From assembly GCA_026625185.1 (NCBI GenBank), contig CP113000.1, forward strand, positions 2,043,124 through 2,107,123: a stretch of 64,000 nt of DNA, written 5' to 3'. The position numbers and the translations under genes were made by a program. Of this stretch, positions 15,675 to 53,938 are shown one piece after another. The stretch is from Thermodesulfobacteriota bacterium. GTDB taxonomy: Bacteria > Desulfobacterota > WTBG01 > JAGOGO01. The first letter of the stretch is position 1; every line of letters begins with the position of its first letter. The notes under the pieces were generated by a model. It did not search any database. It was not told the DNA's origin and worked only from the letters and a program-made list of their open reading frames with translations.

Positions 15675-17498
15675 ATGTTAACAACAGAGGACATTAAAGG
15701 CGTAATCGAGAAAAGAGGAAGCTCAAAAGAACATCTTATGTTTATATTGCGGGATCTCGAGAATATTTCTGGTAATAATCAACTTGAAATTGATGTGTTG
15801 GAGAAAGTAGCTGAGATAACAAAAATCCCAAAGAGCACCATTGCAGGTTTTGTGGGCTTCTACACCATGTTCAAGACAAATCCCAGGGCACCCTTTATTA
15901 TAAGGGTTTGCAAGTCAGGGCCTTGTCATGTTATGGGGGCAAGAACAATTTTTGATGCAGTAGAGCGAAATTTAGGCATTAAGCCTGGAGAAGCAACCCC
16001 TGATGGTCTGTTTTACCTTGAACAGTGTGAATGCCTTGGTGTTTGTTCGGTAGCCCCTGCTATGATGATAAACTACGATATCCATGGTAACCTTACTGAG
16101 AAAAAAATAAAACAAATTTTAGAGTCTTATAAATCCCAAAAGGCAATTTTTGGAGAAAAATGCGGGCCGGAGGTAGAAGGAAAGGCTTGCGTTATTGATG
16201 ATGATAGACAGACAAAGAGACTTTTAGTCATGGTCGGCAAAGTCGACCCTCTTAGCATTGACAGTTATATAAAAAATGGCGGTTATGCCGCGATAAGAAA
16301 GGCCATCAGAGAATATTCTTCAGATGATGTGATCAATATTGTGAAGGATTCAGGGCTCAGTGGCAGAGGTGGCGCGGGATTCCCGGCAGGGTTAAAGTGG
16401 TCATTTATGCCGAAGGGGGATATGCAAAAGTACGTAATTTGTAATGCCGACGAAGGGGAACCGGGAACTTTTAAAGACAGGGTTCTGATGGAGGAAAATC
16501 CTCACTTGATTATTGAGGGGATGCTGCTTTGCGGATATGCGACCGGCGCCACCGTTGGTTATATTTACGTGCGAGGGGAATTCAGGCGCGCTATTGAAAG
16601 ACTTCAAAGAGCCATTGACCAGGCAAGAGAAAGCCGAATGTTGGGGAAGCACCTTTCCGGTTCGACATTCAGCTTTGATATTTTCATCAAAGAAGGTGGT
16701 GGGGCGTATGTATGCGGTGAGGAATCATCGCTTATGAATTCAATGGAAGGCAAGCGGGGTTTTCCGCGGTTCAGACCACCATTTCCCGCGGGTGCTGGTT
16801 TTATGGGGATGCCGTCGAACGTCAATAATGTTGAGACATACGCATCGGTCCCGATGATTATTGAGCATGGTGCCACGTGGTATAAGTCACTGGGCACAGA
16901 AAAGTGCTCTGGAACAAAACTTTACTGCCTATCCGGTAAGCTGAACAGAACAGGGCTGGTTGAACTGCCCATGGGGACAACCCTTCGTGAACTCATTGAT
17001 ATATATGGTAAAGGCATTAAAGATGGAAAAACCTTTAAATTTGCCCAGGTGGGCGGTTCAGCTGGGGGCGTTTTTGGTGAGGATTTGCTTGACCTCCCTC
17101 TTGATATAGATCAGACAATAAAAGCTGGTGTTACGCTTGGTTCCGGAGTTGTGCTTGCGTGCGATAAGGATACCTGTGCGGTTGATTTTCTTCTAAATAT
17201 AATCAGTTTTTTTGCGCACGAATCCTGTGGTCAGTGTGTCCCTTGCAGGGTCGGGACATCACAGTTACACTTTCTTGCAAAGAAATTTGCAATGAGGACA
17301 GCAGTAGAAAAGGATATTGATTCTATGATTGAAAAAGCACAGTTGATGAAGCAGGCTTCTCTTTGTGCGCTCGGGCAATCACCTATATTACCTATTACAA
17401 CCACATTGAAATATTTCAGGGAGGAGTTTTTGAATCACTGTAATACAAGATACAGTTGCCCTGAGTGTGACATGACGTTGGAAAGGTTTTACAGGTAA
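15675..17498 (+). CDS. fdhB: Formate dehydrogenase beta (diaphorase) subunit, a NuoE-like 2Fe-2S domain fused to a NuoF-like FMN/NAD(H)-binding 4Fe-4S domain
   Basis: The N-terminal thioredoxin-like 2Fe-2S Cys pattern is CKSGPC...CECLGVC. It is followed by GRGGAGFPAGLKW and CNADEGEPGTFKDR (NuoF 51-kDa signatures) and a C-terminal CGQCVPCR. Confidence 0.8.
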   Translation: MLTTEDIKGVIEKRGSSKEHLMFILRDLENISGNNQLEIDVLEKVAEITKIPKSTIAGFVGFYTMFKTNPRAPFIIRVCKSGPCHVMGARTIFDAVERNLGIKPGEATPDGLFYLEQCECLGVCSVAPAMMINYDIHGNLTEKKIKQILESYKSQKAIFGEKCGPEVEGKACVIDDDRQTKRLLVMVGKVDPLSIDSYIKNGGYAAIRKAIREYSSDDVINIVKDSGLSGRGGAGFPAGLKWSFMPKGDMQKYVICNADEGEPGTFKDRVLMEENPHLIIEGMLLCGYATGATVGYIYVRGEFRRAIERLQRAIDQARESRMLGKHLSGSTFSFDIFIKEGGGAYVCGEESSLMNSMEGKRGFPRFRPPFPAGAGFMGMPSNVNNVETYASVPMIIEHGATWYKSLGTEKCSGTKLYCLSGKLNRTGLVELPMGTTLRELIDIYGKGIKDGKTFKFAQVGGSAGGVFGEDLLDLPLDIDQTIKAGVTLGSGVVLACDKDTCAVDFLLNIISFFAHESCGQCVPCRVGTSQLHFLAKKFAMRTAVEKDIDSMIEKAQLMKQASLCALGQSPILPITTTLKYFREEFLNHCNTRYSCPECDMTLERFYR

Positions 17499-18551: not shown

Positions 18552-19312
18552 ACGTACTTTCCTGCAATTTAGTCACTTAGTTGTGCGATAAGACTTTCTT
18601 TTTCATAGATGATTGCCTTTATCGCATCCCCGATAGAAATTAATCCAACCAACTTATTTTTGTCAAAAACAGGTAGATGTCTTACATGCTTACCCGTCAT
18701 AAGCACCATGCATTCTTCAACGGTGTTTTCAGGTTTTACAATGAGCGGAGGTGAGGTCATGATTTCTTGAACGAGGGTATCTCTTGACGTTCTCCCTTTC
18801 AGAATAATCTTCCTCGCGTAATCTCGTTCTGAGACGATACCGATTATCTTTCCCTTTTCTATAACTACTAAAGCCCCGATGTCCTTTTCCCCCTTGATAT
18901 GCAGTGCCTCAAACACCGTGGCAGTTGGTGAGATTGACCAGACCTCATTTTTTTTTCTCTTTCAGAATGTCGTTGACGGTTTTCATAATTTGCCTCCTTC
19001 TCAAAAAAATATTGTTATATTGTCAAGATGTTTTGCAGTCATTATTAAGTCCATCGGGCGATACACATATTAAAAACCTAAAAAAGTACCTCCGCGCAAA
19101 AAAGTATTTTATTTTAAAAACTTACCTATCTTAAAATCATTGCTTTACGGAGTTTATTTTTCAAGTCAGATTTTTTTACAGAACCTCAAACAAGAGGTCC
19201 TTAAAATGTTTGCATTTTTTCCCTATTTTGCTCGAAGACCTTAGTTTTTTATGCAAAAGATGATTTTATAGGGTGGAAAAAATATTGTTTTTTTGTATTC
19301 TTAAAATAAAAA
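18552..19312. repeat. Segmental duplication, copy 1: the 3' end of the CBS gene plus its about 300-bp upstream AT-rich region
   Basis: 18552..18660 aligns with 21650..21740 and 19025..19312 aligns with 21770..22092, at roughly 80-85% identity. Confidence 0.6.
18569..18916 (-). CDS. CBS-pair domain protein
   Basis: Two CBS motifs (IMTSPPLIVKPENTV..HLPV and KLVGLISIGDAIK). On the minus strand upstream there is TTGACA..., a GGAGG RBS, then the ATG. Confidence 0.75.
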   Translation of the reverse strand: MFEALHIKGEKDIGALVVIEKGKIIGIVSERDYARKIILKGRTSRDTLVQEIMTSPPLIVKPENTVEECMVLMTGKHVRHLPVFDKNKLVGLISIGDAIKAIIYEKESLIAQLSD

Positions 19313-21649: not shown

Positions 21650-22092
21650 CAATTTAGTCGCTTAGTTGTGTGAGAAGACTCTCTTGTTCAGAAATGATTG
21701 TTTTTTTTATTACCTCCCCAATAGAAATTAATCCACCTAACTTTTGTTTTCTTTATTTTCAATAGTCATTAATAAGCCCATCAGTCGAAACGCATATTAA
21801 AAACCTAAAAAAATACCCCCGCGCAAAAAGTATTTTATTTTAAAAATTTACCTATCTTAAAATCATTGCTTTACGGAGTTTATTTTGCTGGCCAGATTTT
21901 TTTACAGGATGTCAAATAAAAGATTCTTAAGATGTTTATATTTCTATTCCCCTTTTACTCGAAGGGATTATTTTTTTGCAAATGAAAATTTTGTTAGGGT
22001 GAAACATATTGATTTTTTTTGTATTATTAAGATAAAATTTCATTATGGTGAAAAAAATATTGTTTTTTTGTATTATTAAGATAATATTTAAT
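21650..22092. repeat. Segmental duplication, copy 2. It lacks the CBS gene body, retains about 90 bp of the CBS 3' end as a remnant, and has an internal tandem duplication near its end.
   Basis: Aligned by eye to 18552..19312. GGTGAAA(A/C)ATATTG(A)TTTTTTTTGTATTATTAAGATAA occurs twice in tandem at about 21995..22085. Confidence 0.6.
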
Positions 22093-22105
22093 TTCGGGAG
22101 GAAGA

Positions 22106-39775: not shown

Positions 39776-39893
39776 ATTTGAAAAAGCTATAAGCAGTAAG
39801 TTTATTATTCCCCTTTTATTTGTCGTATTTTTTTGTTTTTTCACACCCCAAAAACCTCTCTCCTTGCGCCCAGTGCACGCTTTGCACAACCCC

Positions 39894-39975
39894 CTCGCTC
39901 GTATAACGGCCAACAGAACACGGTAAACGGATTACGGTCCACAGTTAACGGAGAACTGACAACGGATAACTATCT
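39894..39975 (+). repeat. Degenerate heptanucleotide array 1, about 11 x NAACGGN (TAACGGC CAACAGA ACACGGT AAACGGA TTACGGT CCACAGT TAACGGA GAACTGA CAACGGA TAAC)
   Basis: 7-bp periodicity read directly in the sequence. It begins CTCGTATAAC like arrays 4 and 6. Confidence 0.6.
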
Positions 39976-40204
39976 ATTTAGACTCAAAGCATTTTTGGGT
40001 AAAAATATACCCAGGCAGAATGAAATTTTGAGAAGTATTATGGAAAGATTATTGAAATACTAAAAAAAAATAAATGAGTTAGGGATTGGAAAATTTAGGG
40101 ATTGAAAAAATTCAATGAGAATGAAAAAAATATTTTTATTGCGGAATTGCGGAAATTCGTATATTCTGTTATTATGGAGGTATGAATTTTTGCAGGAGAA
40201 AATT

Positions 40205-40456
40205 ATGAAAGAAAACGTCATGGTATCCGGCCGCGGACAAATTACCCTGCCGGCGGCGATTCGAAAGCGCTTAGGGATTAAGCCCGGAGGTATGGTGGTT
40301 TTAGAAGAAAAAAACGGCGAGGTAGTGTTACGCCCCGGAGTGGTAGTGGAAATTGAGACCTACACCGATGCCGACATCGCCCAATGGGATGAAGAGGACC
40401 GATTAGACAAAACTGAACGCGCAGCACTACTCAAACGCCTGGGTAAAAAGACTTGA
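40205..40456 (+). CDS. SpoVT/AbrB-type antitoxin (VapB/MazE-like)
   Basis: GQITLPAAIRKRLGIKPGGMVVLEE. AGGAG RBS. Overlaps the PIN toxin gene by 4 nt. The track ORF is extended upstream. The operator-like direct repeat TTGCGGAATTGCGGAA lies upstream. Confidence 0.7.
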   Translation: MKENVMVSGRGQITLPAAIRKRLGIKPGGMVVLEEKNGEVVLRPGVVVEIETYTDADIAQWDEEDRLDKTERAALLKRLGKKT

Positions 40457-40857
40457 AACGATTGTTTCTTGACGCCAATGTGCTTTTTACCGCAGCACAA
40501 AACCCAGCAGGCAAGGCAGCACTGGTGATTGAATATGGAGGAAAGGGATATTGGGAGATCGTGACCAATACTCTCGCCGTTGAAGAAGCCCGAAGAAATT
40601 TTGCCTTAAAATTTCCGGATTGTTTGACGAAATTTGAAATGCTTTTGTCGGATGTCTTGGTTTTGCCTTCCCAGATAGAAGGGTCATGTTCTTTTTCCCT
40701 TTCTCCTCAAGACCGAATAATCTTTCTTTCTGCGCTCACATGCAAGGCAACTCACCTGCTAACCGGCGATATCAAACATTTCGGCCCGTTTATAAATAAG
40801 CCGAAGATTACATCAGGAATAATTATTCAGACCGTTCCCGAATTCCTGCGGGGATAA
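40453..40857 (+). CDS. PIN-domain toxin (VapC family)
   Basis: N-terminal LFLDANVL with Asp6 and downstream acidic residues (LTGD). 134 aa. Confidence 0.7.
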   Translation: MKRLFLDANVLFTAAQNPAGKAALVIEYGGKGYWEIVTNTLAVEEARRNFALKFPDCLTKFEMLLSDVLVLPSQIEGSCSFSLSPQDRIIFLSALTCKATHLLTGDIKHFGPFINKPKITSGIIIQTVPEFLRG

Positions 40858-40900
40858 GCGCACTGCTTTACCCATTTTCGCTTTAAGCAGTTTTGGGTAA

Positions 40901-40966
40901 GTCAATGGCCAACGGTGAACTGACCACATAACGGCCAACCCTGAACGGAAAACGGATAACGGATCA
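40901..40966 (+). repeat. Degenerate heptanucleotide array 2 (...TAACGGC CAACCCT GAACGGA AAACGGA TAACGGA TCAAAGG)
   Basis: Same 7-bp periodicity and same orientation as array 1. Immediately downstream of vapC. Confidence 0.55.
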
Positions 40967-41192
40967 AAGGAATTTGCTTAATAATTGAGGCTTTATTTTA
41001 ACCCCGGAGGTGTAAATAGTTAGAAAAGTCTTGATAATTATATAACTTATTGATATAAAAGGAAATATTTATCAAATTGGGATTCAATGCAGGCTTGGAA
41101 ATGGTGAAGTGGAAAAAATATCGGGTGTAATGAAATTTTTTGTGTTTGTATTATTGGTACCACGACAAGTTTGATGAACTGACAACAAAGAT

Positions 41193-41603
41193 ATGAACAC
41201 GAAGTCGACTTGGGATAAGGCAAATGATACGATTGCTCAATTAGTTCGTTATACCTTGGTTGGCGGCTTAGCGTTTGTATTCGATTTTGGGTCTTTATTT
41301 ATCCTTACGGAATATTTAAATATTCATTATCTGGTTTCGGCTGCGTTCGCTTTTTTATTGGGCCTGACGATAAACTATACCTTAAGTATAATCTGGGTTT
41401 TTGAAAAACGTACCCTGTCAAATCAGAGGATAGAGTTTTTCATCTTTTCTTTAATCGGCATGGTTGGATTGGGATTGAATGAGTTTATCATGTGGCTTTT
41501 TACGGATATTCTAAATTGTTTCTATTTGCTATCGAAAATTGTTTCTACTGTATTTGTATTTCTGTGGAATTTTTTCGTAAGAAAATTCGTTTTATTCAAT
41601 TAA
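41193..41603 (+). CDS. GtrA-family small polytopic membrane protein (putative Und-P-sugar flippase)
   Basis: [52 protein letters not shown] is the GtrA signature. Four TM helices. Confidence 0.7.
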
Positions 41604-41613
41604 GAGAAATACC

Positions 41614-43203
41614 ATGCACCGGAAAACGGCGGTTATAATAGGCGCAGGACCGGCGGGTCTTACCGCCGCTTATGAATTACTCCATAGAACAGAAATAAAA
41701 CCAATTATCTTTGAGAGCACATCTGATATCGGCGGCATATCAAAGACAGTTAATTACAAGGGAAACCGCATAGACATTGGGGGGCACAGGTTCTTTTCAA
41801 AATCAGACAGGATAATGCGATGGTGGCAGCACATAATGCCGGTGCAAGACGACCCTGCACGAGATGAATTCAAACGGAGCTATGAAAATCAGGAAAGGGG
41901 GATAACATTTGCCTTAAATCACAGCGGACCTGATCCTGAAAAAAATGACCGGGTAATGCTTATCCGCCACCGCCTTTCAAGGATATTCTTTTTGCGAAAA
42001 TTTTTTGATTATCCGGTATCCCTGAATCTCAATACCTTATCCAACCTGGGAGTCACGAGAATATTTAAAATTGGTTGTAGCTATGCCAAAATAAAGATTC
42101 TCCCAAAAAGAAAAGAACTCTCTCTGGAAGATTTCTTTATTAATCGCTTTGGAAAGGAATTATACCTTACTTTCTTTAAGGACTATACTGAGAAGGTATG
42201 GGGGATTCCCTGCACGGCAATAAAACCCGAATGGGGTGCGCAAAGAATTAAAGGTCTGTCTCTTACCAAGACATTCATCCATGCTTTTAAAAAAATATTT
42301 AAAAAAAAATCGTCTATTGGTCAAAAAAATACAGAAACAACTTTAATCGAGCGGTTTTTATATCCAAAATATGGACCAGGTCAAATGTGGGAGACGGTAG
42401 CACAAATTATCAAGGAAAAAGGCGGAGAAATATACACCAATCAGATGGTCAAAGGCCTCATGGTTGATCGTGAAAAAGTGGTTTCAGTAGAAGTTGATGA
42501 TCTGCGTGAAAAGAGAACATATCAGGTAACCGGGGATTTCTTTTTTTCAACGATGGCGGTGAAAGATTTGGTAGCCGCAATTAAAGGTTATGTTCCCGAT
42601 CATGTTCGTAATGTGGCAGCCGGTTTAGTCTATCGCGATTTTATTACCGTGGGACTTCTTCTGAAAAAATTACTTGTGAAGAATGAATCCAAGATGACTA
42701 CGCTCGGCACTTTAATCCCTGATAACTGGATCTATATTCAAGAAAAGGACGTTAAAGTTGGAAGGCTTCAGATTTTCAATAATTGGAGTCCCTACCTGGT
42801 AGCGAATAAAGATACTGTCTGGATCGGGATGGAATATTTTTGCAATGAAGGTGATGAGCTGTGGAATAAATCGGATGAGGAGTTTAGTGTATTCGCGGTT
42901 GATGAATTAGCGAGGATTGACATTATCGACAAAGAAGACGTCATGGATAGCGTGGTCATCAGAATGGGGAAAACCTATCCCGCCTATTTCGGAACGTATG
43001 ATCGGTTTAACGAAATTAGAGAATTCATCGATACCTACGAAAATCTTTTTTTAATCGGAAGAAACGGAATGCACCGATACAACAATATGGATCATTCCAT
43101 GCTGACGGCCATGGTTGCGGTGGATAATATTCTGAACAAAATATTCACAAAAGATAATATCTGGTCGGTCAATACCGAGCAGGACTATCACGAAGAACGA
43201 TAA
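41614..43203 (+). CDS. FAD-dependent oxidoreductase (amine-oxidase/Glf-like Rossmann fold)
   Basis: N-terminal dinucleotide fold [26 protein letters not shown]. 529 aa. Confidence 0.55.
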
Positions 43204-43259
43204 ATCTTCTCATATGTTTCATAGAGCCCGGTGGCAGGAATAGGCGAAGGGCATGTCGT

Positions 43260-45221
43260 TCATCTACTATCGAGAGATCTGATACGTTTACAACTGTAGA
43301 GGTACCAATCAAAATCCTGATATTTTAAAATAGCTATATAATTATAGACACGGATGTTTTTTCGCGAAAGAATTTTTTTCGGTTGATATTCCGGCACCTC
43401 ATACTGAGCAATGATAAAATCCAAATTCTGAGCCTTGCTACAGCATTTTTTAATCTCGTTTGCGTAGAAAACCTTCATCTTTATCAGTTGGTCTTTAGTG
43501 GAAACTATGATGGGATTCTCAACTGATTCCAATAATCCGATATTATTCATTCTCTTATCTAATTCCAGAGCTTTTTCACGAGAAAAGACAATACCGGATT
43601 CTTGCAAACGAGATACATAATTTGTGCGGTTTAATAGAAACCATGATAACTCAGGATGCCCAAGCCACAGTATTTCTGAGTTTTTCGGTATATTCTCAGC
43701 CCCGAATGATTGCTCAACTCCGATTGTTTTCGCAAACAATTTTTCACACTCGAGCCTCTGGTCCCATAACCCCAGCGAAATAAAAAAGAAAGTCCCTGAA
43801 AGCGCGATCAAAAGTTTATTTTTTTGCCGCAGGTGATAGTATAAAAGCGGAATACCGGCAAAGATCAAAAGTAAGTTGGAAATTATCGCGTTATAATCCG
43901 GCACTAAATGGATCAATGAAAGAGAGTGGTTAAGCTTAAATATGGCAAAATAAAATAATAGGATATCAGTTAACAGTAGGACAACAGAAAGGATTACCAG
44001 AATGGTATCCAGCTTTATCCTGAAATCCTCGGTAAAAGGATTTTTTTTAAAGACCGTCCATTGCGATAAATATTTATTTTTCTTACTGTAGCTTATTAAT
44101 ACCAGGAAGAATTCAATGATGATAAGGACTATATAATGTAGTGAAAACACCGTGGTGTATAAACAAAGCCAGGCCGCGCAATATACGGCTGCAAAGGATT
44201 TCGCGAAATTTGAATAGTTCCTGATTTTGATATATATCGAGGGCAGGGATAGATAGGAAAAGAATAACAGCAGCCAGCAAGTTCGCCAGGTTTGAACCTG
44301 CAAAACCATTACGTTTTTAAGGAAATCACCCAAACACAAAGACAGGAGGAAGGATATCCCAATGGAAGCGAGGAGGGATATGGCTACCTTGCGTCTCTTC
44401 CCTCTATTGATAACCGCGTAAAGCAGTACTACTAAGAAAGATGCTAAGATCGGCAGAATATCCCTTAAGGTCCAGTTGCTCAGAAAAAGAACAGACGGAG
44501 ATTTTTGAATGATACCTGCCCAGTCCGCGTCCATAGATTGAAATATTCTGACAAAGGGAGAGATACTAAATAGAGCTAATAATACGACAATTACTGACAG
44601 TATGAGACCGATAATAATGGTAGGTCTACGGCGTTCGAAAAAAAAATAGACGTATAAAAAGATTGCTCCGGTGCCCGCCATAATGGGGTGCAGAAGAAAA
44701 CTCATGGCCAAGGTAACCGGGCATAAAACAAACCTTCTTTTCAGGGCAAAAAATAGGGAAAACAGGACAAAAGCTTCGGCATATATTCTCGGGGTAAGAA
44801 AAGGCTCTCCAAAAGAAAATACGTGGTTGGCTCCATAAAAGGCCGGCATAGCGATAGCAAAGGCGAAAGAAAGGAATTTCAGCGCCCCTTTATAAAATAT
44901 ACCCGCCAGCAGATAGGCGGACACGAACCAGAGAACGTGACCGAGAATAAAAAGAATAATGTTTGCGGTAATGGGATTGGTCAGCTTGATGATGAACGCG
45001 TATGGATAAGAAAAAACCGTATAATTTTCCTGAGAGTCAAAGCGGAGAAAAAGATCATTTTTGAAAATCTCCGGTTTTATATGACTCATGGCCTGTAAGG
45101 TGTAAAGTTTTGCATCATAAACGATGCCTTTATAAGGATGACTAAGGATCCAGATTGATACCAAAGCCAGGAAGATTGAAATGATAAAGAGTAAATTTTT
45201 ATGTGTTACCTTATTCATCAA
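43260..45221 (-). CDS. Large polytopic membrane protein, putative GT-C-fold glycosyltransferase or polymerase
   Basis: At least 13 hydrophobic helices. It sits in a GtrA/GtrB context. No confident family match by eye. The start is TTG at 45221 or the ATG at 45218. Confidence 0.4.
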   Translation of the reverse strand: MMNKVTHKNLLFIISIFLALVSIWILSHPYKGIVYDAKLYTLQAMSHIKPEIFKNDLFLRFDSQENYTVFSYPYAFIIKLTNPITANIILFILGHVLWFVSAYLLAGIFYKGALKFLSFAFAIAMPAFYGANHVFSFGEPFLTPRIYAEAFVLFSLFFALKRRFVLCPVTLAMSFLLHPIMAGTGAIFLYVYFFFERRRPTIIIGLILSVIVVLLALFSISPFVRIFQSMDADWAGIIQKSPSVLFLSNWTLRDILPILASFLVVLLYAVINRGKRRKVAISLLASIGISFLLSLCLGDFLKNVMVLQVQTWRTCWLLLFFSYLSLPSIYIKIRNYSNFAKSFAAVYCAAWLCLYTTVFSLHYIVLIIIEFFLVLISYSKKNKYLSQWTVFKKNPFTEDFRIKLDTILVILSVVLLLTDILLFYFAIFKLNHSLSLIHLVPDYNAIISNLLLIFAGIPLLYYHLRQKNKLLIALSGTFFFISLGLWDQRLECEKLFAKTIGVEQSFGAENIPKNSEILWLGHPELSWFLLNRTNYVSRLQESGIVFSREKALELDKRMNNIGLLESVENPIIVSTKDQLIKMKVFYANEIKKCCSKAQNLDFIIAQYEVPEYQPKKILSRKNIRVYNYIAILKYQDFDWYLYSCKRIRSLDSR

Positions 45222-45228
45222 TTAGTTA

Positions 45229-45292
45229 GCCGTTATCTGTTGACCGTTTCCCGTTGGCTGTTATCCGTTCACCGTTGTTCGTTTAATTGAGT
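45229..45292 (-). repeat. Degenerate heptanucleotide array 3. It is in CCGTT orientation on the plus strand, so it reads NAACGGN on the minus strand.
   Basis: TTAGCCGTTATCTGTTGACCGTTTCCCGTTGGCTGTTATCCGTTCACCGTTGTTCGTTTAA. It lies between the microprotein stop and the start of the downstream membrane-protein gene. Confidence 0.6.
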
Positions 45293-45380
45293 TTTTAAGA
45301 GCGCTTATTTTGGCTGAGATTTTATGCAAGTGTTCGATTAACTCACTAAACGATTTATGATTAATATAATCTTGCTTCAT
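45261..45380 (-). CDS. Conserved 39-aa microprotein (MKQDYINHKSFSELIEHLHKISAKISALKNSIKRTTVNG). The track ORF extends to 45467 from a TTG start.
   Basis: A paralog at about 47180..47299 differs by 5 synonymous and about 6 nonsynonymous substitutions. The stop lies inside heptad array 3. Confidence 0.4.
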   Translation of the reverse strand: MKQDYINHKSFSELIEHLHKISAKISALKNSIKRTTVNG

Positions 45381-45534
45381 CGAAATCTCGAGAAGCGGAA
45401 CACATTCATGTGAGGAATCCAAAGCAATGCTAAGGAAATTTTGTTGTTTTATAAATTTGGTCAGCAAATTCGATAGCGTCTTTATATACTTCTAATCTTT
45501 CAAAATTGAATTGCATCTATTAATTCCCTCTCTC

Positions 45535-45592
45535 GTATAACCGATAACGGCGAACGTTGAACGGTAAACGGAAAACGGTCAACGGACAACAA
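45535..45592 (+). repeat. Degenerate heptanucleotide array 4 (TAACGGC GAACGTT GAACGGT AAACGGA AAACGGT CAACGGA CAAC). It abuts the stop of the 45599..47122 gene.
   Basis: 7-bp periodicity. Inverted relative to array 3. Confidence 0.6.
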
Positions 45593-45598
45593 TTAATA

Positions 45599-47122
45599 TT
45601 ATTTTCTCACAAAAATAGTTCCCGCCTCATCCTCATAAACCTTCTTCCATCCCGGGCTGTCACCGATAAATTCAATAATTCTCTTGTTGTCTTTTTTACT
45701 GAGTACCACGAAAGAGATTTTGTATTTATCCAGGATTTTTTCCCAATCTCCCATGCCGAAGTGCACGTCGCTGCAGTCTTTCCAGATCTCTTCCGGGACC
45801 AGGTGCAGCCGGGTATCGGCGAATACCTTGTATTCCGGCCACAGTTTCCAGATCAGATAGCTTCCCCAGTTGATATCATTAAACATATTTCCCTTCAGGC
45901 CTTGTTTTTTTATATATTGCGCTATTGCCACCGGCTCGGATTTGGGATTAATAAAATTTCGCACGCTTTTGATGGGAAGATAAGGCCTGAACCAAGGGAG
46001 AAACGATATCGCGGTTATTAACAGAATAATGAAAAAGATGATGTTCAACGTCAGGCATTCGCTTTCGGTTTCTTCTTTTTTCCCCCCTGATATTTTTTGC
46101 CGCACCAGTTCTATCGAGCAAAAATGTGCGGCCAGGATCGGGGCGGAGACAATCCCCCACCACATGACCATTCGCTCCGCCTTAAAACCGACAAACAGAA
46201 AAACAAGAAGCAGCAAGGCTTCGGTAAAAGTAATTTTTCGTGTGCTGAATTTAAGGATGATGCCGGCAAGCACAACGGAGACAATAAAGCAATAGCCTAA
46301 ACCATCCTTCATGGCGGTCGGCTGCCATTCGGCGGAGCGTGCTGCCGAACTTGATGCGTTCACCCATACGTCTTCCCAGATGTTTATACCGTAAGGATTT
46401 ATTAAGGTGACCAGCGTCAGCATTATCAGCAAAAAAAGAAGCCGTCTCAATCTTGAATCTTTGGTCAGTCTCCTGAATCTTTCCTTTGCAGTAACAGAAT
46501 ATCCGGCTCTATTATAATATTCATCGGCTGCTCTTCCCACTAAAAAGATGCCGGCCAATATAATGGCAAGCGGGAAGCTGTTGTGAAGATTGACCCACAG
46601 TATCATTAACAGTGACAACAAAAGGATTAAAGAATTGCCTATTTTTTCTTTTTGAAAAAGCTGACGGTAGAAAAAGACAAACAGGGGGATGGTAAACAAC
46701 TGGGGACGCATATACCAGTTGGTAAATCCGAGGACCGCGGCAAACACTATAAAAAGGAGAGTGACCTTATAATGCTTCGTTAGAATTTGGATAAGGTGAT
46801 AAAAGATGGACATGGCCAGAAGCAAAAGGCCGACTCTCAGAATGATAAGCGATTCGAGGCTCCCCATTTTCTCGCAAACTGCAAGCGCTACCTGCGAAAG
46901 CCAGCCGGAATTGATATACTGGAGGCCAAAAAAGGTATGGGTAAAGAGGTCATGGCTGATAATAGCCCTTTTTTCGATCATTGCTTGGCCGAGTTTAAGG
47001 TAATAGCCAAGGTCATTGGAAATTACATCACCCCCCAGGCCCAAGATGGCGGTCAGCCAGAAAGGAAGGATATAATAAATAGTTTTAAGCCTGAAAAGGG
47101 GAGGTATCTGGTCGGTTTTCAT
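45599..47122 (-). CDS. Second large polytopic membrane protein, putative GT-C-fold glycosyltransferase
   Basis: At least 11 hydrophobic helices. It is preceded by the second microprotein-and-array unit. Confidence 0.4.
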   Translation of the reverse strand: MKTDQIPPLFRLKTIYYILPFWLTAILGLGGDVISNDLGYYLKLGQAMIEKRAIISHDLFTHTFFGLQYINSGWLSQVALAVCEKMGSLESLIILRVGLLLLAMSIFYHLIQILTKHYKVTLLFIVFAAVLGFTNWYMRPQLFTIPLFVFFYRQLFQKEKIGNSLILLLSLLMILWVNLHNSFPLAIILAGIFLVGRAADEYYNRAGYSVTAKERFRRLTKDSRLRRLLFLLIMLTLVTLINPYGINIWEDVWVNASSSAARSAEWQPTAMKDGLGYCFIVSVVLAGIILKFSTRKITFTEALLLLVFLFVGFKAERMVMWWGIVSAPILAAHFCSIELVRQKISGGKKEETESECLTLNIIFFIILLITAISFLPWFRPYLPIKSVRNFINPKSEPVAIAQYIKKQGLKGNMFNDINWGSYLIWKLWPEYKVFADTRLHLVPEEIWKDCSDVHFGMGDWEKILDKYKISFVVLSKKDNKRIIEFIGDSPGWKKVYEDEAGTIFVRK

Positions 47123-47139
47123 AGTAGTCGTTTACTGTG

Positions 47140-47200
47140 ATCCGTTAACCGTTATTTGTTGACCGTTTTCCGTTGGCAGTTATCGGTTCATCGTTGTTCG
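47140..47200 (-). repeat. Degenerate heptanucleotide array 5 (CCGTT orientation on the plus strand)
   Basis: TCCGTTAACCGTTATTTGTTGACCGTTTTCCGTTGGCAGTTATCGGTTCATCGTTGTTCG. It shares GTTGACCGTTTYCCGTT with array 3. Confidence 0.6.
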
Positions 47201-47299
47201 TTTAAGTGAGTTTTTAAGGGCGCTTATTTTTGCTGATATTTTATACAATTGTTCGATTAACTCACTGAAGGATTTATGATCAATATATTTTTGTTTCAT
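47180..47299 (-). CDS. Paralogous 39-aa microprotein (MKQKYIDHKSFSELIEQLYKISAKISALKNSLKRTTMNR)
   Basis: See 45261..45380. Coordinates are accurate to about 1 nt. Confidence 0.35.
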   Translation of the reverse strand: MKQKYIDHKSFSELIEQLYKISAKISALKNSLKRTTMNR

Positions 47300-47467
47300 C
47301 GAAATCTCTAAAATTTTCCTTCATTGTTTTTCCTCTCGTCCCCATTTTTTTACCCCTCACCTAAATCCTCTCCCCGGCGGGGAGAGGAAGGAAAGGACGG
47401 AACACATTCATATGAGGAGCCAAGAGCAAGAAGAAAATTTAATTGCATCTATTAATTCCTTCCCTCC

Positions 47468-47540
47468 TATAACCGTTAACGGTGAATGGTTAACAGAAAA
47501 CGGTAAACAGATAACGGTTAACGGAGAACAAAGAACGTTT
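47468..47540 (+). repeat. Degenerate heptanucleotide array 6 (TAACCGT TAACGGT GAATGGT TAACAGA AAACGGT AAACAGA TAACGGT TAACGGA GAACAAA GAACG). It abuts the stop of the GT2 gene.
   Basis: 7-bp periodicity. Begins CTCCTATAACCG like arrays 1 and 4. Confidence 0.6.
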
Positions 47541-48283
47541 TATATTCTGTATTTTCCGGTTAAATAACGTGTCCGTATTCTCACCAAATCAATCAACATA
47601 CTAAAAGAATCCTTCACCATATGAACCCGGGAGTCGGGAGAATTAATCCATTTTATGGGAACCTCCTTTATCCGGTATCCGTTTTTGTCTGCTATAAAAA
47701 GCAGTTCCACATCAAAACCAAATCCCCAAACAGTCTGTTTTGCAAACAGTACGTTGGCTGCCTCTTTTTTGAAGAGTTTGAAACCGCACTGGGTATCCTT
47801 GATCCCGGATAACGTGAGAAGCTGTACCAGCTTGTTGAAGGTCTTTCCCATAAACTCCCTTGGCCATGGCTGCCTCTCCAAAATATCCGACCCGGGCAAT
47901 GCCCGGGATCCGATAGCAATATCATAGCCTTGGTCGAGCCAGTCTGCCAGTTTATCAACTTCCTGGATAGGAGTGGATAGATCAGCATCGGAAAAAAGAA
48001 TAATCCTTCCTTGGGAATGCAATACCCCGGCTCTTACCGAATATCCTTTCCCACGATTGACCTTATTTCCCAATAACCGGACAGAGGAAAACTCCCCGGC
48101 AAATTTTCTGATCACCTTGCGAGTGTTGTCACTGCTTCCATCATCCACCACAATGATCTCAGAGCGATAATCCCTGGTCAGTAAAAATTCGTGGATTTTT
48201 TGTAAGGTGGCGCCGATTCTTTCGGCTTCATTAAATGCAGGGATAACCACCGAAAGATGGATATTATTCAAGGATTCAACCAC
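47540..48283 (-). CDS. Family-2 glycosyltransferase (GtrB / polyprenyl-phosphate sugar synthase-like)
   Basis: LSVVIPAFNEAERIGATL...IIVVDDGSSDNT and a DxD region (SDADLST). 247 aa. Confidence 0.8.
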   Translation of the reverse strand: MVESLNNIHLSVVIPAFNEAERIGATLQKIHEFLLTRDYRSEIIVVDDGSSDNTRKVIRKFAGEFSSVRLLGNKVNRGKGYSVRAGVLHSQGRIILFSDADLSTPIQEVDKLADWLDQGYDIAIGSRALPGSDILERQPWPREFMGKTFNKLVQLLTLSGIKDTQCGFKLFKKEAANVLFAKQTVWGFGFDVELLFIADKNGYRIKEVPIKWINSPDSRVHMVKDSFSMLIDLVRIRTRYLTGKYRI

Positions 48284-48694: not shown

Positions 48695-49663
48695 CTAACG
48701 TGTCTCCTTATAATTTTTTGCCCCATCACTCCTTTTAACCTGCGATATAATGTGTCATTGATAATATCACGGCTATGGCCATAAATACATCCCTGTTTGG
48801 AGGTGGAGCGACCGGGTGAAAAAATGCTATAGTAAAAAGTTGTTGATATTCTTAAAAAAATTACAATTAAAATTATATAAAATAACATAGTGGAAATTAT
48901 GAATAAAAAATAAAAGCTAATGTTAATTAGCCATTCAATTCTTTTATCGCATGCCGATAATTGTCCATAGTGTGCCAAAAATTTTCTTATTTTTTTAAAC
49001 AATTTTCTGCAAATTTTTTATTTGGGCAATTTTAAAAATAAATTTTGCAAAATAGTAAAGAAAAAAATCTAATATTTTACTTGAAATTAAACTTATTACG
49101 TATTATTATTTCAAAAAATTTCTTTTTTCAAAAAAATGGCTTTATCTTTTGGCATTATAGTTGCTTGGAAGTTGAATAAGTTCAGACAATATTGATCCTT
49201 AGGAAAAAGCCACACCAGTGGTGAGGCTGGGCCGGAAAGCCACGGGTCTTAATTAATCGAAAGATATCCGGGTTGCCAAAAAAGGTAACCGGCTATTTTT
49301 TGGTATTAATCCCCCTCACCTCAATCCTCTCCCCGGCGGGGAGAGGATTGAAAGATTTGAAGTCTATCCTGATGGGGAGAGGAAGGTAAAGTAAAAAATC
49401 CTCCAAAAGGGAGGGAAAGGCAACGTAGTAAAAGCTCTCCTCAAAGGAAGAGAAAGGGACTAAATAAGCAAGTAAATACTTTTTTGTAGTTATATAGATT
49501 AAATACCCTATTTACTAACTTGCTTCATTATGAAATAATTTTTTCAAATAACTTTTTTGAAAGGAGGAAAAGCCAAGAAAGAACATCAATAAATCATTAG
49601 AAACAAATGGGTTAAAATTTTTTTAAAACCTAATTGTTATTTTTTTATTAAAGGAGGTAACAG

Positions 49664-51696: not shown

Positions 51697-51977
51697 CACC
51701 CTCACCCCGGCCCTCTCCCTCAAGGGAGAGGGAGTTTTGAATTGATTCTCTCCCTCAAGGGAGAGGGAGTTTTGAATTGATTCTCTCCCTCAAGGGAGAG
51801 TGGGGTGGTTGCTTCTCTCTCCATTAAGGGAAAAAATGTTTTTTGGTTTCTTCTCTCCGTTAAAGGGGAGATAGAAATTTTGGTTTGATTCTCTCCCTTA
51901 AGGGAGAAGGAAAATTTGGAGTGGATTTTGAAACGTTACCTCCTCTCCCCTGCGGGGAGAGGATTGAGGTGAGGGGG
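51697..51977 (+). repeat. Tandem array of about 7 hairpin units (about 36 bp each: CTCTCCCTCAAGGGAGAG plus GGAGTTTTGAATTGATT). It degenerates distally and ends with an inverted copy of the CCTCACC..GGGGAGAGGA element.
   Basis: The first three units are near-identical. Read directly in the sequence between cpaB and cpaC. Confidence 0.6.
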
Positions 51978-53667: not shown

Positions 53668-53867
53668 ACAAATTAATGAAATCGGGCACAATTTCCCAGG
53701 GGTATTTTTCAGGCAACACAAAACCTGTCTGATTTTTGACTTCAAAATCAGCAGGTATTTTATCCCCACAAATTAATGAAATCGGGCACAATTTCCCAGG
53801 GGTATTTTTCAGGCAACACAAAACCTGTCTGATTTTTGACTTCAAAATCAGCAGGTATTTTATCCCC
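53668..53867 (+). repeat. Perfect 2 x 100-bp tandem direct duplication. Each unit contains the hairpin CTGATTTTTGACTTCAAAATCAG.
   Basis: Units 53668..53767 and 53768..53867 appear identical by eye. They are preceded by the partial related motif CGGCGACAAATT (twice). Confidence 0.7.
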
Positions 53868-53938
53868 AAAATTCTTATGGCCGAAGCCGATTTTTCCCCT
53901 AAAAAAACAAATTCATTAAGGCATAAAAACCTTCTTTT

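Follow-up and report, generated by a model that had tools for sequence, protein, structure and literature searches.

Heptad Arrays in a Bacterial Glycosylation Locus as Probable Repeat Arms of Intervening Sequence-Type Cassettes Built Around a Four-Helix-Bundle Gene

Introduction

What are imperfect tandem repeats, each unit only 7 nt long, doing between the genes of a bacterial operon? The question is raised by 64,000 nucleotides of a Thermodesulfobacteriota metagenome-assembled genome (assembly GCA_026625185.1, contig CP113000.1, positions 2,043,124 to 2,107,123; this whole stretch is what we call the window), in which six arrays of a degenerate heptad, NAACGGN or, on the opposite strand, NCCGTTN, lie in and beside a glycosylation locus. 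An initial annotation, made from the letters alone, took the arrays to delimit a toxin-antitoxin pair and two repeated modules, and it offered three kinds of explanation: a recombination or phase-variation system for swapping membrane-protein genes, iteron-like binding sites for a regulator, and a mobile promoter cassette. Here, we argue that the arrays are the repeat arms of intergenic cassettes of the intervening sequence (IVS) type, that the normal cargo of such a cassette is a gene of ~120 codons for a four-helix-bundle (4HB) protein, and that the two arms pair with each other in the polycistronic RNA. We put the probability of this reading at roughly 0.7.

Results

Six Arrays with a Period of Seven

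The whole 64 kb was scanned for autocorrelation at lag 7 (56-nt windows, a cut-off of at least 0.55, and 50 Markov shuffles as the control), and exactly six sites reached the cut-off: 39899-39980, 40900-40969, 45199-45290, 45513-45615, 47125-47206, and 47453-47563. The shuffle maximum was 0.536; of the lags from 3 to 15, none but 7 and its double, 14, is prominent; and Tandem Repeats Finder recovers the same six arrays with periods of 7, 14, and 21. The six periodic AACGG arrays of the initial annotation are thereby confirmed, and so, once the heptads are set in register, are the orientations given for them: the plus strand reads AACGG in arrays 1, 2, 4, and 6 and CCGTT in arrays 3 and 5, arrays 1 and 2 being direct and the pairs 3/4 and 5/6 inverted.

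In register, array 1 runs from 39904 to 39973 on the plus strand with 10 heptads, and array 2, also on the plus strand, runs from 40908 to 40963 with five in-phase heptads at 40929-40963 and about three more at 40908-40928 whose phase is displaced by 2 nt. The remaining four belong, on the minus strand, to what we call units 1 and 2. Array 3 (45222-45284, nine units) is the 3' arm of unit 1 and reads AACGG in the minus-strand transcript; array 4 (45538-45593, eight units) is its 5' arm and reads CCGUU; arrays 5 (47127-47203, 11 units) and 6 (47470-47539, 10 units) are the 3' and 5' arms of unit 2. The limits first proposed were off by a few bases, and array 2 falls below the 8-11 units ascribed to it, although all six sites stand.

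The heptads are degenerate, with two to three differences per unit. The string GTTGACCGTTTYCCGTT is indeed common to arrays 3 and 5, and CTCSTATAAC is common to arrays 1, 4, and 6, because the cassette arms are homologous. The arrays are, as they were called at the outset, structured end sequences rather than random microsatellites. Their placement is tight. Array 6 adjoins the stop codon (47540-47542) of a glycosyltransferase gene, array 4 stands 5 nt from the stop codon (45599-45601) of a 507-aa gene, and the ATGs of the downstream membrane-protein genes lie ~4-5 nt past arrays 3 and 5.

Could the arrays be something already catalogued? Rfam has no family for them, whether searched at gathering scores over the whole window or by E-value over 39.7-47.7 kb, and its sole CRISPR match (41541-41565; 25 bits vs. 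a gathering score of 39) lies away from the arrays. CRISPRs have repeats of 24-48 nt with unique spacers, whereas these are tandem 7-nt units without spacers, and an integron cassette is bounded by a single attC palindrome with GTTRRRY cores rather than by a tandem array, so the initial annotation was right to see neither here.

Two Dead Genes Between the Arrays

What arrays 3-6 enclose, by sequence homology, is twice the same gene, and both copies are dead. [quoted passage not shown] Pseudogene 1 (45261-45516, minus strand) keeps the N-terminal 28 and the C-terminal ~58 codons and has an internal deletion of ~113 bp and a frameshift. Its ribosome-binding region (45521-45537; GAGAGAGGGAA on the minus strand), a good site that is conserved in intact cassettes, precedes an ATG at 45516 and then MQFNFERLEVYKDAIEFADQIYKTTKFP; after the frameshift, the unit ends ...LLEISMKQDYINHKSFSELIEHLHKISAKISALKNSIKRTTVNG. 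The joined translation scores 39.5 bits against PF05635 (gathering score 33.8; E=7e-10) and matches 44 proteins named “four helix bundle protein” (best E 1e-33), and the intact relative P0001, which itself matches TIGR02436 at 1.7e-33, aligns by tblastn with 86% identity in both pieces. Such intact relatives also match two solved, uncharacterised structures, 2GSC and 2RLD.

Pseudogene 2 (47180-47448, minus strand) keeps its start codon, five further codons, and a C-terminal part, in which residues 79-121 of P0001 find 79% identity by tblastn, and it carries an insertion and a deletion that, aligned to intact genes, is larger than and distinct from that of unit 1. The two copies therefore decayed independently. 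A REP (repetitive extragenic palindrome)-like element at 47311-47398 is inserted in pseudogene 2; its core, CTCTCCCCGGCGGGGAGAG, recurs within a shared element of ~45 nt, the palindromes lying at 47368-47386, 49327-49345, and 51943-51961, where chance would supply none. A tandem array with a 35-nt period (51713-51919) carries a related palindrome, CTCTCCCTCAAGGGAGAG.

On the minus strand, the order is a GT2 glycosyltransferase gene (47540-48283; PF00535, E=3e-31), which is the first of the series, then unit 2, membrane-protein gene 2 (45599-47122; 507 aa, no Pfam match), unit 1, and membrane-protein gene 1 (43260-45218; 652 aa, no Pfam match), whose ATG is 4 nt from array 3. The source record annotates neither unit (its proteins here are WAC06557, WAC06561, and WAC06562). 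Promoter-like and terminator-like sites are not enriched in the units, and for want of such an excess, a mobile promoter is not supported; the mobile cassette in that proposal was near the truth.

The Same Place in Related Genomes

A related genome (loci L001/L218), with ~84% nucleotide identity, has the same order of genes: EamA, GT2, an intact 4HB gene of 122 aa, and membrane-protein genes of 508 and 657 aa. The intact gene occupies the exact position of unit 2, with CCGTT heptads upstream and AACGG heptads that run from its last codons to the next ATG, and two further orthologs of the unit 2 junction (L138 and L003) likewise hold an intact 4HB gene between GT2 and a gene of ~500 aa, again with CCGTT heptads upstream and AACGG heptads downstream. 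Between the 508- and 657-aa genes of L001/L218, there is a plain 117-bp spacer and no counterpart of unit 1. To judge by these alignments, related genomes still have, in intact form, the cassette of which unit 2 is a decayed ortholog, and unit 1 is a second copy that decayed on its own account. The intact 4HB genes are under purifying selection, with dN/dS between 0.07 and 0.20.

A Gene with Periodic Arms Across Many Phyla

Is the pairing of 4HB gene and heptad arms peculiar to this locus? When metagenomes were scanned with a 4HB alignment, 80 loci matched the query at 43-93% aa identity; 64 of them are nonredundant and have both flanks, and each 160-nt flank was scored by its maximum lag-7 autocorrelation, with segments of the same contigs as controls. 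Over the 64 loci, the mean maximum was 0.62 upstream and 0.61 downstream vs. 0.39 in the controls, and the same flanks at lags 4-6 and 8-11 gave 0.36-0.40. A value of at least 0.6 was reached by 75% of upstream and 62% of downstream flanks vs. 4% of controls.

Close relatives have CCGTT heptads upstream and AACGG heptads downstream of the 4HB gene; distant ones have other heptads in the same two places (RGTTCRT and AYGAACY, GTTCACN and NGTGAAC, or GTTCATA and TATGAAC). The downstream neighbor is codirectional with the 4HB gene in 44 of 46 loci and the upstream neighbor in 36 of 45, and the operons themselves have nothing to do with one another: sugar modification, carB, ychF, guaA, response regulators, nrd, cas, and tRNA. 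The tRNA case (L200, 2381-3014) is a 4HB cassette with heptads of the GTTGACA/TGTCAAC type, set between tRNA-Pro and tRNA-Arg of a five-tRNA operon; the same operon has another gap, of 700 nt, ahead of tRNA-His.

Plasmids of cultured bacteria tell the same story. A tblastn search returned 37 records, mostly from Nostocales, and flanking arrays stand beside the 4HB gene in 12 of the 13 loci that we fetched (Nostoc, Riemerella, Geminocystis, Azospirillum, and others), with arms as varied as TCAGGAG/CTCCTGA in Nostoc punctiforme, AGGTTCA/TGAACCT in Riemerella, GGGAAAA/TTTTCCC in Geminocystis, GTAGGGA/TCCCTAC in Nostoc edaphicum, and GGACAGA/TCTGTCC in Azospirillum. The architecture of gene plus arms is general, across many bacterial phyla, the arms being inverted as a rule and their period 7 nt in most loci. 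Some cassettes even sit inside CRISPR-cas operons (L228, L229, and L233), once between cmr2 and cmr3 and, in two distant cyanobacteria, between cas6 and cas4, a recurrent position that could reflect either ancestry or a preference for the site; Zhang et al. (PMC3936711) described 4HB genes between cas genes and made no mention of repeats. In the literature on PF05635, TIGR02436, S23, or 4HB proteins together with heptamers, we found no general association, only an observation specific to Coxiella.

The Arms Travel with the Gene

The most direct evidence that arms and gene form one thing comes from Nostoc, in which a homologous four-gene operon, A-B-C-D, has been filled at two different places. 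On plasmids pNPUN02 and pNPUN01 of N. punctiforme, the cassette lies between B and C (L222 of pNPUN02, 1444-1865), and on pNsp_c of Nostoc ATCC 53789, it lies between C and D (L230, 1131-1637); where the corresponding spacer is empty, it measures just 3 nt (TAG-gtt-ATG and TAA-ttt-ATG), and the two cassettes differ in their heptad (TCAGGAG vs. GGAAAAG). It follows that array-gene-array is the inserted unit, with a point of entry exactly between one gene's stop codon and the next one's start codon, and that the 4HB gene takes its arms along into such spacers.

Does this make the arms the terminal inverted repeats of a transposable element, acting as DNA, with the decayed units as nonautonomous copies like miniature inverted-repeat transposable elements (MITEs)? 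An enzyme could then read the arrays as a single-strand hairpin or a cruciform, with or via the 4HB protein. The filled and empty Nostoc sites speak for movement, as do the absence of unit 1 from the orthologous L001 spacer, the presence of near-identical 4HB genes (70-93% aa identity) in unrelated operons, and the “empty” inverted heptad hairpins, described below, between operon genes in many phyla; Ralph and McClelland, as quoted in PMC4990558, already entertained the IVS open reading frame (ORF) as a mobility component. Against it, neither filled/empty Nostoc pair shows a target-site duplication (the units of the window have no clean empty site for comparison), the protein is a 120-aa helical bundle without a known catalytic fold and with uncharacterised relatives, and units 1 and 2, being differently deleted, did not spread as already-defective copies. 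We regard the transposable element as possible, if unlikely, and it is in any case compatible with an RNA hairpin, for it concerns how the cassette moves rather than how the host tolerates it. The decayed units do resemble MITEs, REPINs, and integron cassettes in being small, decayed or noncoding, intergenic, inverted at their ends, and polymorphic in presence and absence; they are unlike these in that their ends are tandem 7-nt arrays rather than unique terminal inverted repeats or attC sites, that no target-site duplication is seen, and that the two decayed independently.

Pairing of the Two Arms

What might the arms do as RNA? In minimum free energy folds of the minus-strand RNA, arrays 4/3 of unit 1 and 6/5 of unit 2 pair as one long interrupted stem, with fold z-scores of -5.2 for unit 1 and -5.9 for unit 2; folds of the same form are obtained for a Nostoc cassette (z-score -4.8) and for the intact ortholog. 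Over the 64 loci, the duplex of upstream and downstream arms has a median z of -2.9 against shuffled arms, with z < -2 in 61%, and the sense-strand duplex is stronger than the antisense one in 44 loci vs. 20 (p=0.0017), a bias that matches what is expected if G-U pairs were selected at the level of RNA.

There is a precedent. The 4HB family was first met with inside IVSs of 23S rRNA. The IVS of Coxiella burnetii 23S rRNA, regarded as selfish and horizontally acquired, is 428 nt long; RNase III excises this element, which has a terminal stem of 28 bp and carries an S23p ORF. Two to three tandem GACAGAT heptamers lie just upstream of the S23p ATG, in a copy number that varies by strain, the 5' RNase III site is at the first of these heptamers, and in one strain a deletion has removed 176 bp of the ORF (PMC4990558). 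Since the cores of our units are S23p pseudogenes, the element belongs with the S23p-type IVSs, which are known to carry tandem heptamers. The units share with those of Coxiella and Leptospira a length of ~400 nt, a PF05635 ORF, and complementary, stem-forming termini, and with the Coxiella IVS, they share tandem heptamers that adjoin the ORF and an ORF that is prone to decay. They differ in place, lying between protein-coding genes of a glycosylation operon rather than in helix 9, 25, or 45 of 23S rRNA (Rfam finds no rRNA in the window, and the genes that flank the units code for proteins), and they differ in build, with arms that consist wholly of 8-11 degenerate heptads rather than a unique 28-bp stem and two to three heptamers on one side.

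In the canonical cassette, the order is the upstream stop codon, (NCCGTTN)n, a Shine-Dalgarno sequence, the 4HB ORF, (NAACGGN)n, and the downstream start codon, all codirectional, and the whole would be cotranscribed with its host operon. The two arms would then form, by pairing, a long imperfect stem; the 4HB ORF would be looped out, and the stop and start codons of the host genes would be brought together. Such a stem is a likely substrate for RNase III, as it is in the Coxiella IVS, and that would make the insertion tolerable in operons, in tRNA operons, and in rRNA; the degenerate 7-nt arms could pair in many registers and with noncognate arms. On the anatomy of the cassettes, the fold statistics, and the Coxiella precedent, arm pairing in the operon transcript, probably with processing by RNase III, is the likeliest way for the cassettes to work.

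Several observations pull the other way. The decayed units of the window have no sense bias, the antisense duplex being equal or better. Cognate arms pair at -63.4 kcal/mol vs. -60.4 for noncognate arms (p=0.02); any CCGTT arm pairs nearly as well with any AACGG arm, and complementarity is therefore generic and locus-specific covariation weak. The arms are direct, not inverted, in L162, L166, and the Pseudanabaena locus L229, and the downstream arm is absent from L191, L194, and L198, so that a hairpin cannot be obligatory. Two plasmid loci, L227 of Gemmatirosa and L228 of Picosynechococcus, have an 8-nt period (CTCCTGCC and CTCCTAAT), and the period is therefore not universally 7. To these must be added the lack of a target-site duplication at the two Nostoc pairs; the fact that no transposase, RAYT, integrase, or other recombinase has been identified with the cassettes (in the window, the Pfam scan of ORFs over 36.4-49.0 kb includes no integrase); and the many arrays elsewhere that have no 4HB gene beside them, to which we now turn.

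Heptad Arrays Without a 4HB Gene

A genome scan for (AACGGNN)x4 gave at least 120 loci in Gemmatimonadota, Acidobacteriota, Bacteroidota, Cyanobacteria, Calditrichota, Latescibacterota, and others, and a local hidden Markov model (HMM) finds a 4HB gene nearby in only 3 of the 120. Arrays therefore also exist on their own, and the idea that AACGG arrays always stand beside 4HB genes had to be rejected. When 146 small ORFs that adjoin the arrays were run against Pfam, they yielded one PF05635 and one PIN match, the rest being unrelated housekeeping genes. Many of the loci are “empty” inverted heptad hairpins between operon genes, as around nuoJ and nuoK in L112, which, taken with the decayed units of the window, suggests a series of decay that would run from intact cassette to pseudogene to empty hairpin. 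AACGG lies in sense orientation just upstream of start codons in 48 cases vs. 38 antisense, a count confounded by spurious ORFs in GC-rich genomes; stop-to-stop ORFs are likewise an unreliable means of sorting arrays into those inside ORFs and those between genes. One locus (L130) has three heptad arrays at ~890-1070 and 2150-2210, made of TAAACCC, which resembles the plant telomere repeat, CCGTTTA, and eight copies of CTGTTCA.

Repeats of this general kind have been met before: STRR (short tandemly repeated repetitive)-type 7-bp hairpins between cotranscribed cyanobacterial genes (PMC2670836), TAACTGA repeats in Beggiatoaceae, Cyanobacteria, and Bacteroidetes (PMC4679880), and, in Geobacter metallireducens, paired sites of inverted tandem repeats that lie between the genes of operons (PMC2700814). 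Like ours, these are intergenic 7-nt tandem units, often before a start codon or between cotranscribed genes and often in inverted pairs able to form hairpins; unlike ours, which are degenerate and come from a Thermodesulfobacteriota genome, they are near perfect, and none of the three reports ties its repeats to a 4HB/S23p gene. Nor does the unit itself agree, for NAACGGN fits neither TAACTGA nor any STRR consensus, and only single units (CAACAGA) resemble STRR3. The STRR consensus units are CCCCAGT, TTGGTCA, or CAACAGT.

Might the arrays, with or without a gene, be iteron-like sites in DNA or RNA for a protein with a 7-nt register, either the 4HB protein itself or one such as S1, Csp, or IHF/HU, that would regulate the flanking genes? 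The 7-nt period stays constant while the sequence changes between lineages, the heptad differs between cassettes of closely related plasmids, as cognate sites would, and the 3' arm adjoins the downstream start codon; similar proposals have been made for the TAACTGA repeats (PMC4679880) and the Geobacter paired sites (PMC2700814). However, the arrays persist in the window with both 4HB genes dead, in other genomes, a 4HB gene is missing from the neighborhood of most arrays, and the link between clade and heptad is equally well explained by common descent of the whole cassette. Regulation through such sites seems to us quite unlikely.

Arrays 1 and 2 and the vapBC Module

The first two arrays present a different problem, for what lies between them is not a 4HB gene but a vapBC module. 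At 39881-39903 on the minus strand, TTTGCACAACCCCCTCGCTCGTA can be aligned with the junction GCAT..CCCCTCGGTCGTATAAC, both as it stands in units 1 and 2 and as it stands in the intact cassettes L138, L001, and L003. The left edge of array 1, TTTGCACAACCCCCTCGCTCGTATAACGG, corresponds in alignment to the start-codon/Shine-Dalgarno/first-heptad junction of intact cassettes, which is why array 1 shares CTCSTATAAC with arrays 4 and 6. Judged from this junction, a third cassette once stood here and was lost, array 1 being its orphan 5' arm; neither tblastn nor HMM finds any 4HB coding remnant beside arrays 1 and 2, and only the junction survives. The right flank of array 2 is the conserved upstream region of gtrA. 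In L218, a single short array has the cassette junction on one side and the same gtrA region, colinear with that of array 2, on the other, with no vapBC between them. The module seems to occupy a break in an array: either an array here took up vapBC, or L218 lost it by deletion between direct arrays. The same locus, L218, has a 95-nt direct repeat (16266-16360 and 19207-19301; 81% identity), comprising a short CCGTT array and its flank, around a 2.9-kb Tad/TadE module.

The module has the layout of a type II toxin-antitoxin system, in which a small gene for an antitoxin with an AbrB/SpoVT domain overlaps a downstream toxin gene. The antitoxin gene, of the AbrB/MazE type (40205-40456, plus strand; 83 aa), matches PF04014 at E=1.6e-11 and TIGR01439 at E=1.1e-13, and the gene for a putative PIN-like toxin (40453-40857, plus strand; 134 aa) overlaps it by 4 nt. 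The toxin matches PIN_12 and PIN_3 weakly (E 0.06-0.09, below the cut-offs) and no NCBIfam model, and IMG names it “predicted nucleic acid-binding protein.” The AbrB-type antitoxin may have its operator in a tandem pair of TTAGGGATTGRAAAAW (40079-40110, plus strand), which lies ~95 nt upstream of the gene's start.

A palindromic box downstream of vapC (40869-40900) has a degenerate copy, in direct repeat, at 39971-40002. The intact box of ~33 nt, TTACCCATTTCCGMTCAAAGCGGTTTYGGGTAA, preceded by ccataaaattataagattc, adjoins the same AbrB-PIN module in three other loci, upstream of the module in L219 (~1560-1610), a run of three toxin-antitoxin modules, and in L220 (~150-200) and downstream of it in L221 (~1010-1060), where GGTGATG heptads and an intact 4HB cassette come after the box. 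Recurring with the module in four different contexts, the window included, the box has the look of a separate kind of cassette boundary, palindromic but without GTTRRRY cores.

Split arrays and direct repeats bring us to the suggestion that the membrane-protein (GT-C-like) genes are deleted, inverted, or swapped by recombination or phase variation between the units or else that the heptads serve as contingency repeats through slipped-strand changes. Units 1 and 2 lie ~1.9 kb apart in direct repeat, L218 has one array where the window has array 1, vapBC, and array 2, the Tad module of L218 lies within its 95-nt direct repeat, and heptamer copy number varies among Coxiella strains; arrays of closely related loci, for which there are few close pairs, differ by one whole-heptad (7-nt) indel, between L201 and L203. 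Yet five independent assemblies or metagenomes of the organism, four of them 100% and one 99.98% identical across 41.6-51.1 kb, contain no deletion, inversion, or unit-number variant in that interval; two to three differences per heptad disfavor slippage; the same cassettes occupy operons (carB, ychF, guaA, cas, nrd, and tRNA) that have no part in glycosylation; and the cassettes have no associated recombinase. What they carry is the 4HB gene rather than the glycosylation genes, and the initial annotation's system for swapping or deleting GT-C genes is not supported; phase variation in any of these forms is, in our judgment, very unlikely indeed.

Other Features of the Window

A c-di-GMP-I riboswitch aptamer (49199-49280, plus strand; RF01051, 56.6 bits vs. 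a gathering score of 35) separates the EamA/GT2 operon from Flp-pilus genes, with the REP-like palindrome at 49327-49345 directly after it. A 100-nt unit is present in 2.1 tandem copies with 99% identity at 53668-53873, and an AT-rich tandem repeat with a 49-nt period has 2.2 copies at 21985-22093.

Discussion

Heptamer intergenic repeats, STRR and its relatives, have been without an accepted function, to our knowledge, since about 1990, and we know of no role for the S23p/4HB family since 1993, although some genomes hold tens of copies. These two old puzzles may be one. Gene and heptad arms are a single unit, inserted precisely between the stop and start codons of operons in several phyla, under purifying selection while intact and apparently decaying to “empty” repeat hairpins; the window preserves it in a state of decay.

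One other 4HB protein is a relative: Avd, the accessory protein of diversity-generating retroelements (DGRs), is homologous to the protein considered here (NF033474, E=1e-5, although at 25 bits vs. a cut-off of 80), and PF22296 (bAvd) is coannotated on several 4HB homologs. Unlike a DGR, however, the units of the window have no reverse transcriptase and no template or variable repeat near them.

How far might the idea be taken? One could imagine that 4HB genes with their 7-nt arms make up one widespread and unrecognized class of mobile element, in which the 4HB protein would read a cognate register for movement or for RNA processing, the 23S IVS would be a special case, and orphan arrays would be footprints or nonautonomous derivatives; STRR, the TAACTGA repeats, the Geobacter paired sites, and arrays 1 and 2 of the window would then all be such orphans. 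We offer this broader picture tentatively and think it improbable as a whole. That gene and arms are one unit makes for predictions in culturable hosts such as Nostoc punctiforme, whose intact cassettes include NPUN_RS33770 and NPUN_RS35280, and Riemerella anatipestifer: cleavage by RNase III within the arms, binding of the 4HB protein to cognate heptads, and effects of polarity or translational coupling on the neighboring genes.

For those who annotate genomes, there is a caution here, in that such arrays should not be taken for regulatory sites or phase-variation switches of the genes beside them. And there is an account of something that has been easy to pass over, for 4HB cassettes account for unannotated gaps of ~400 bp in operons.

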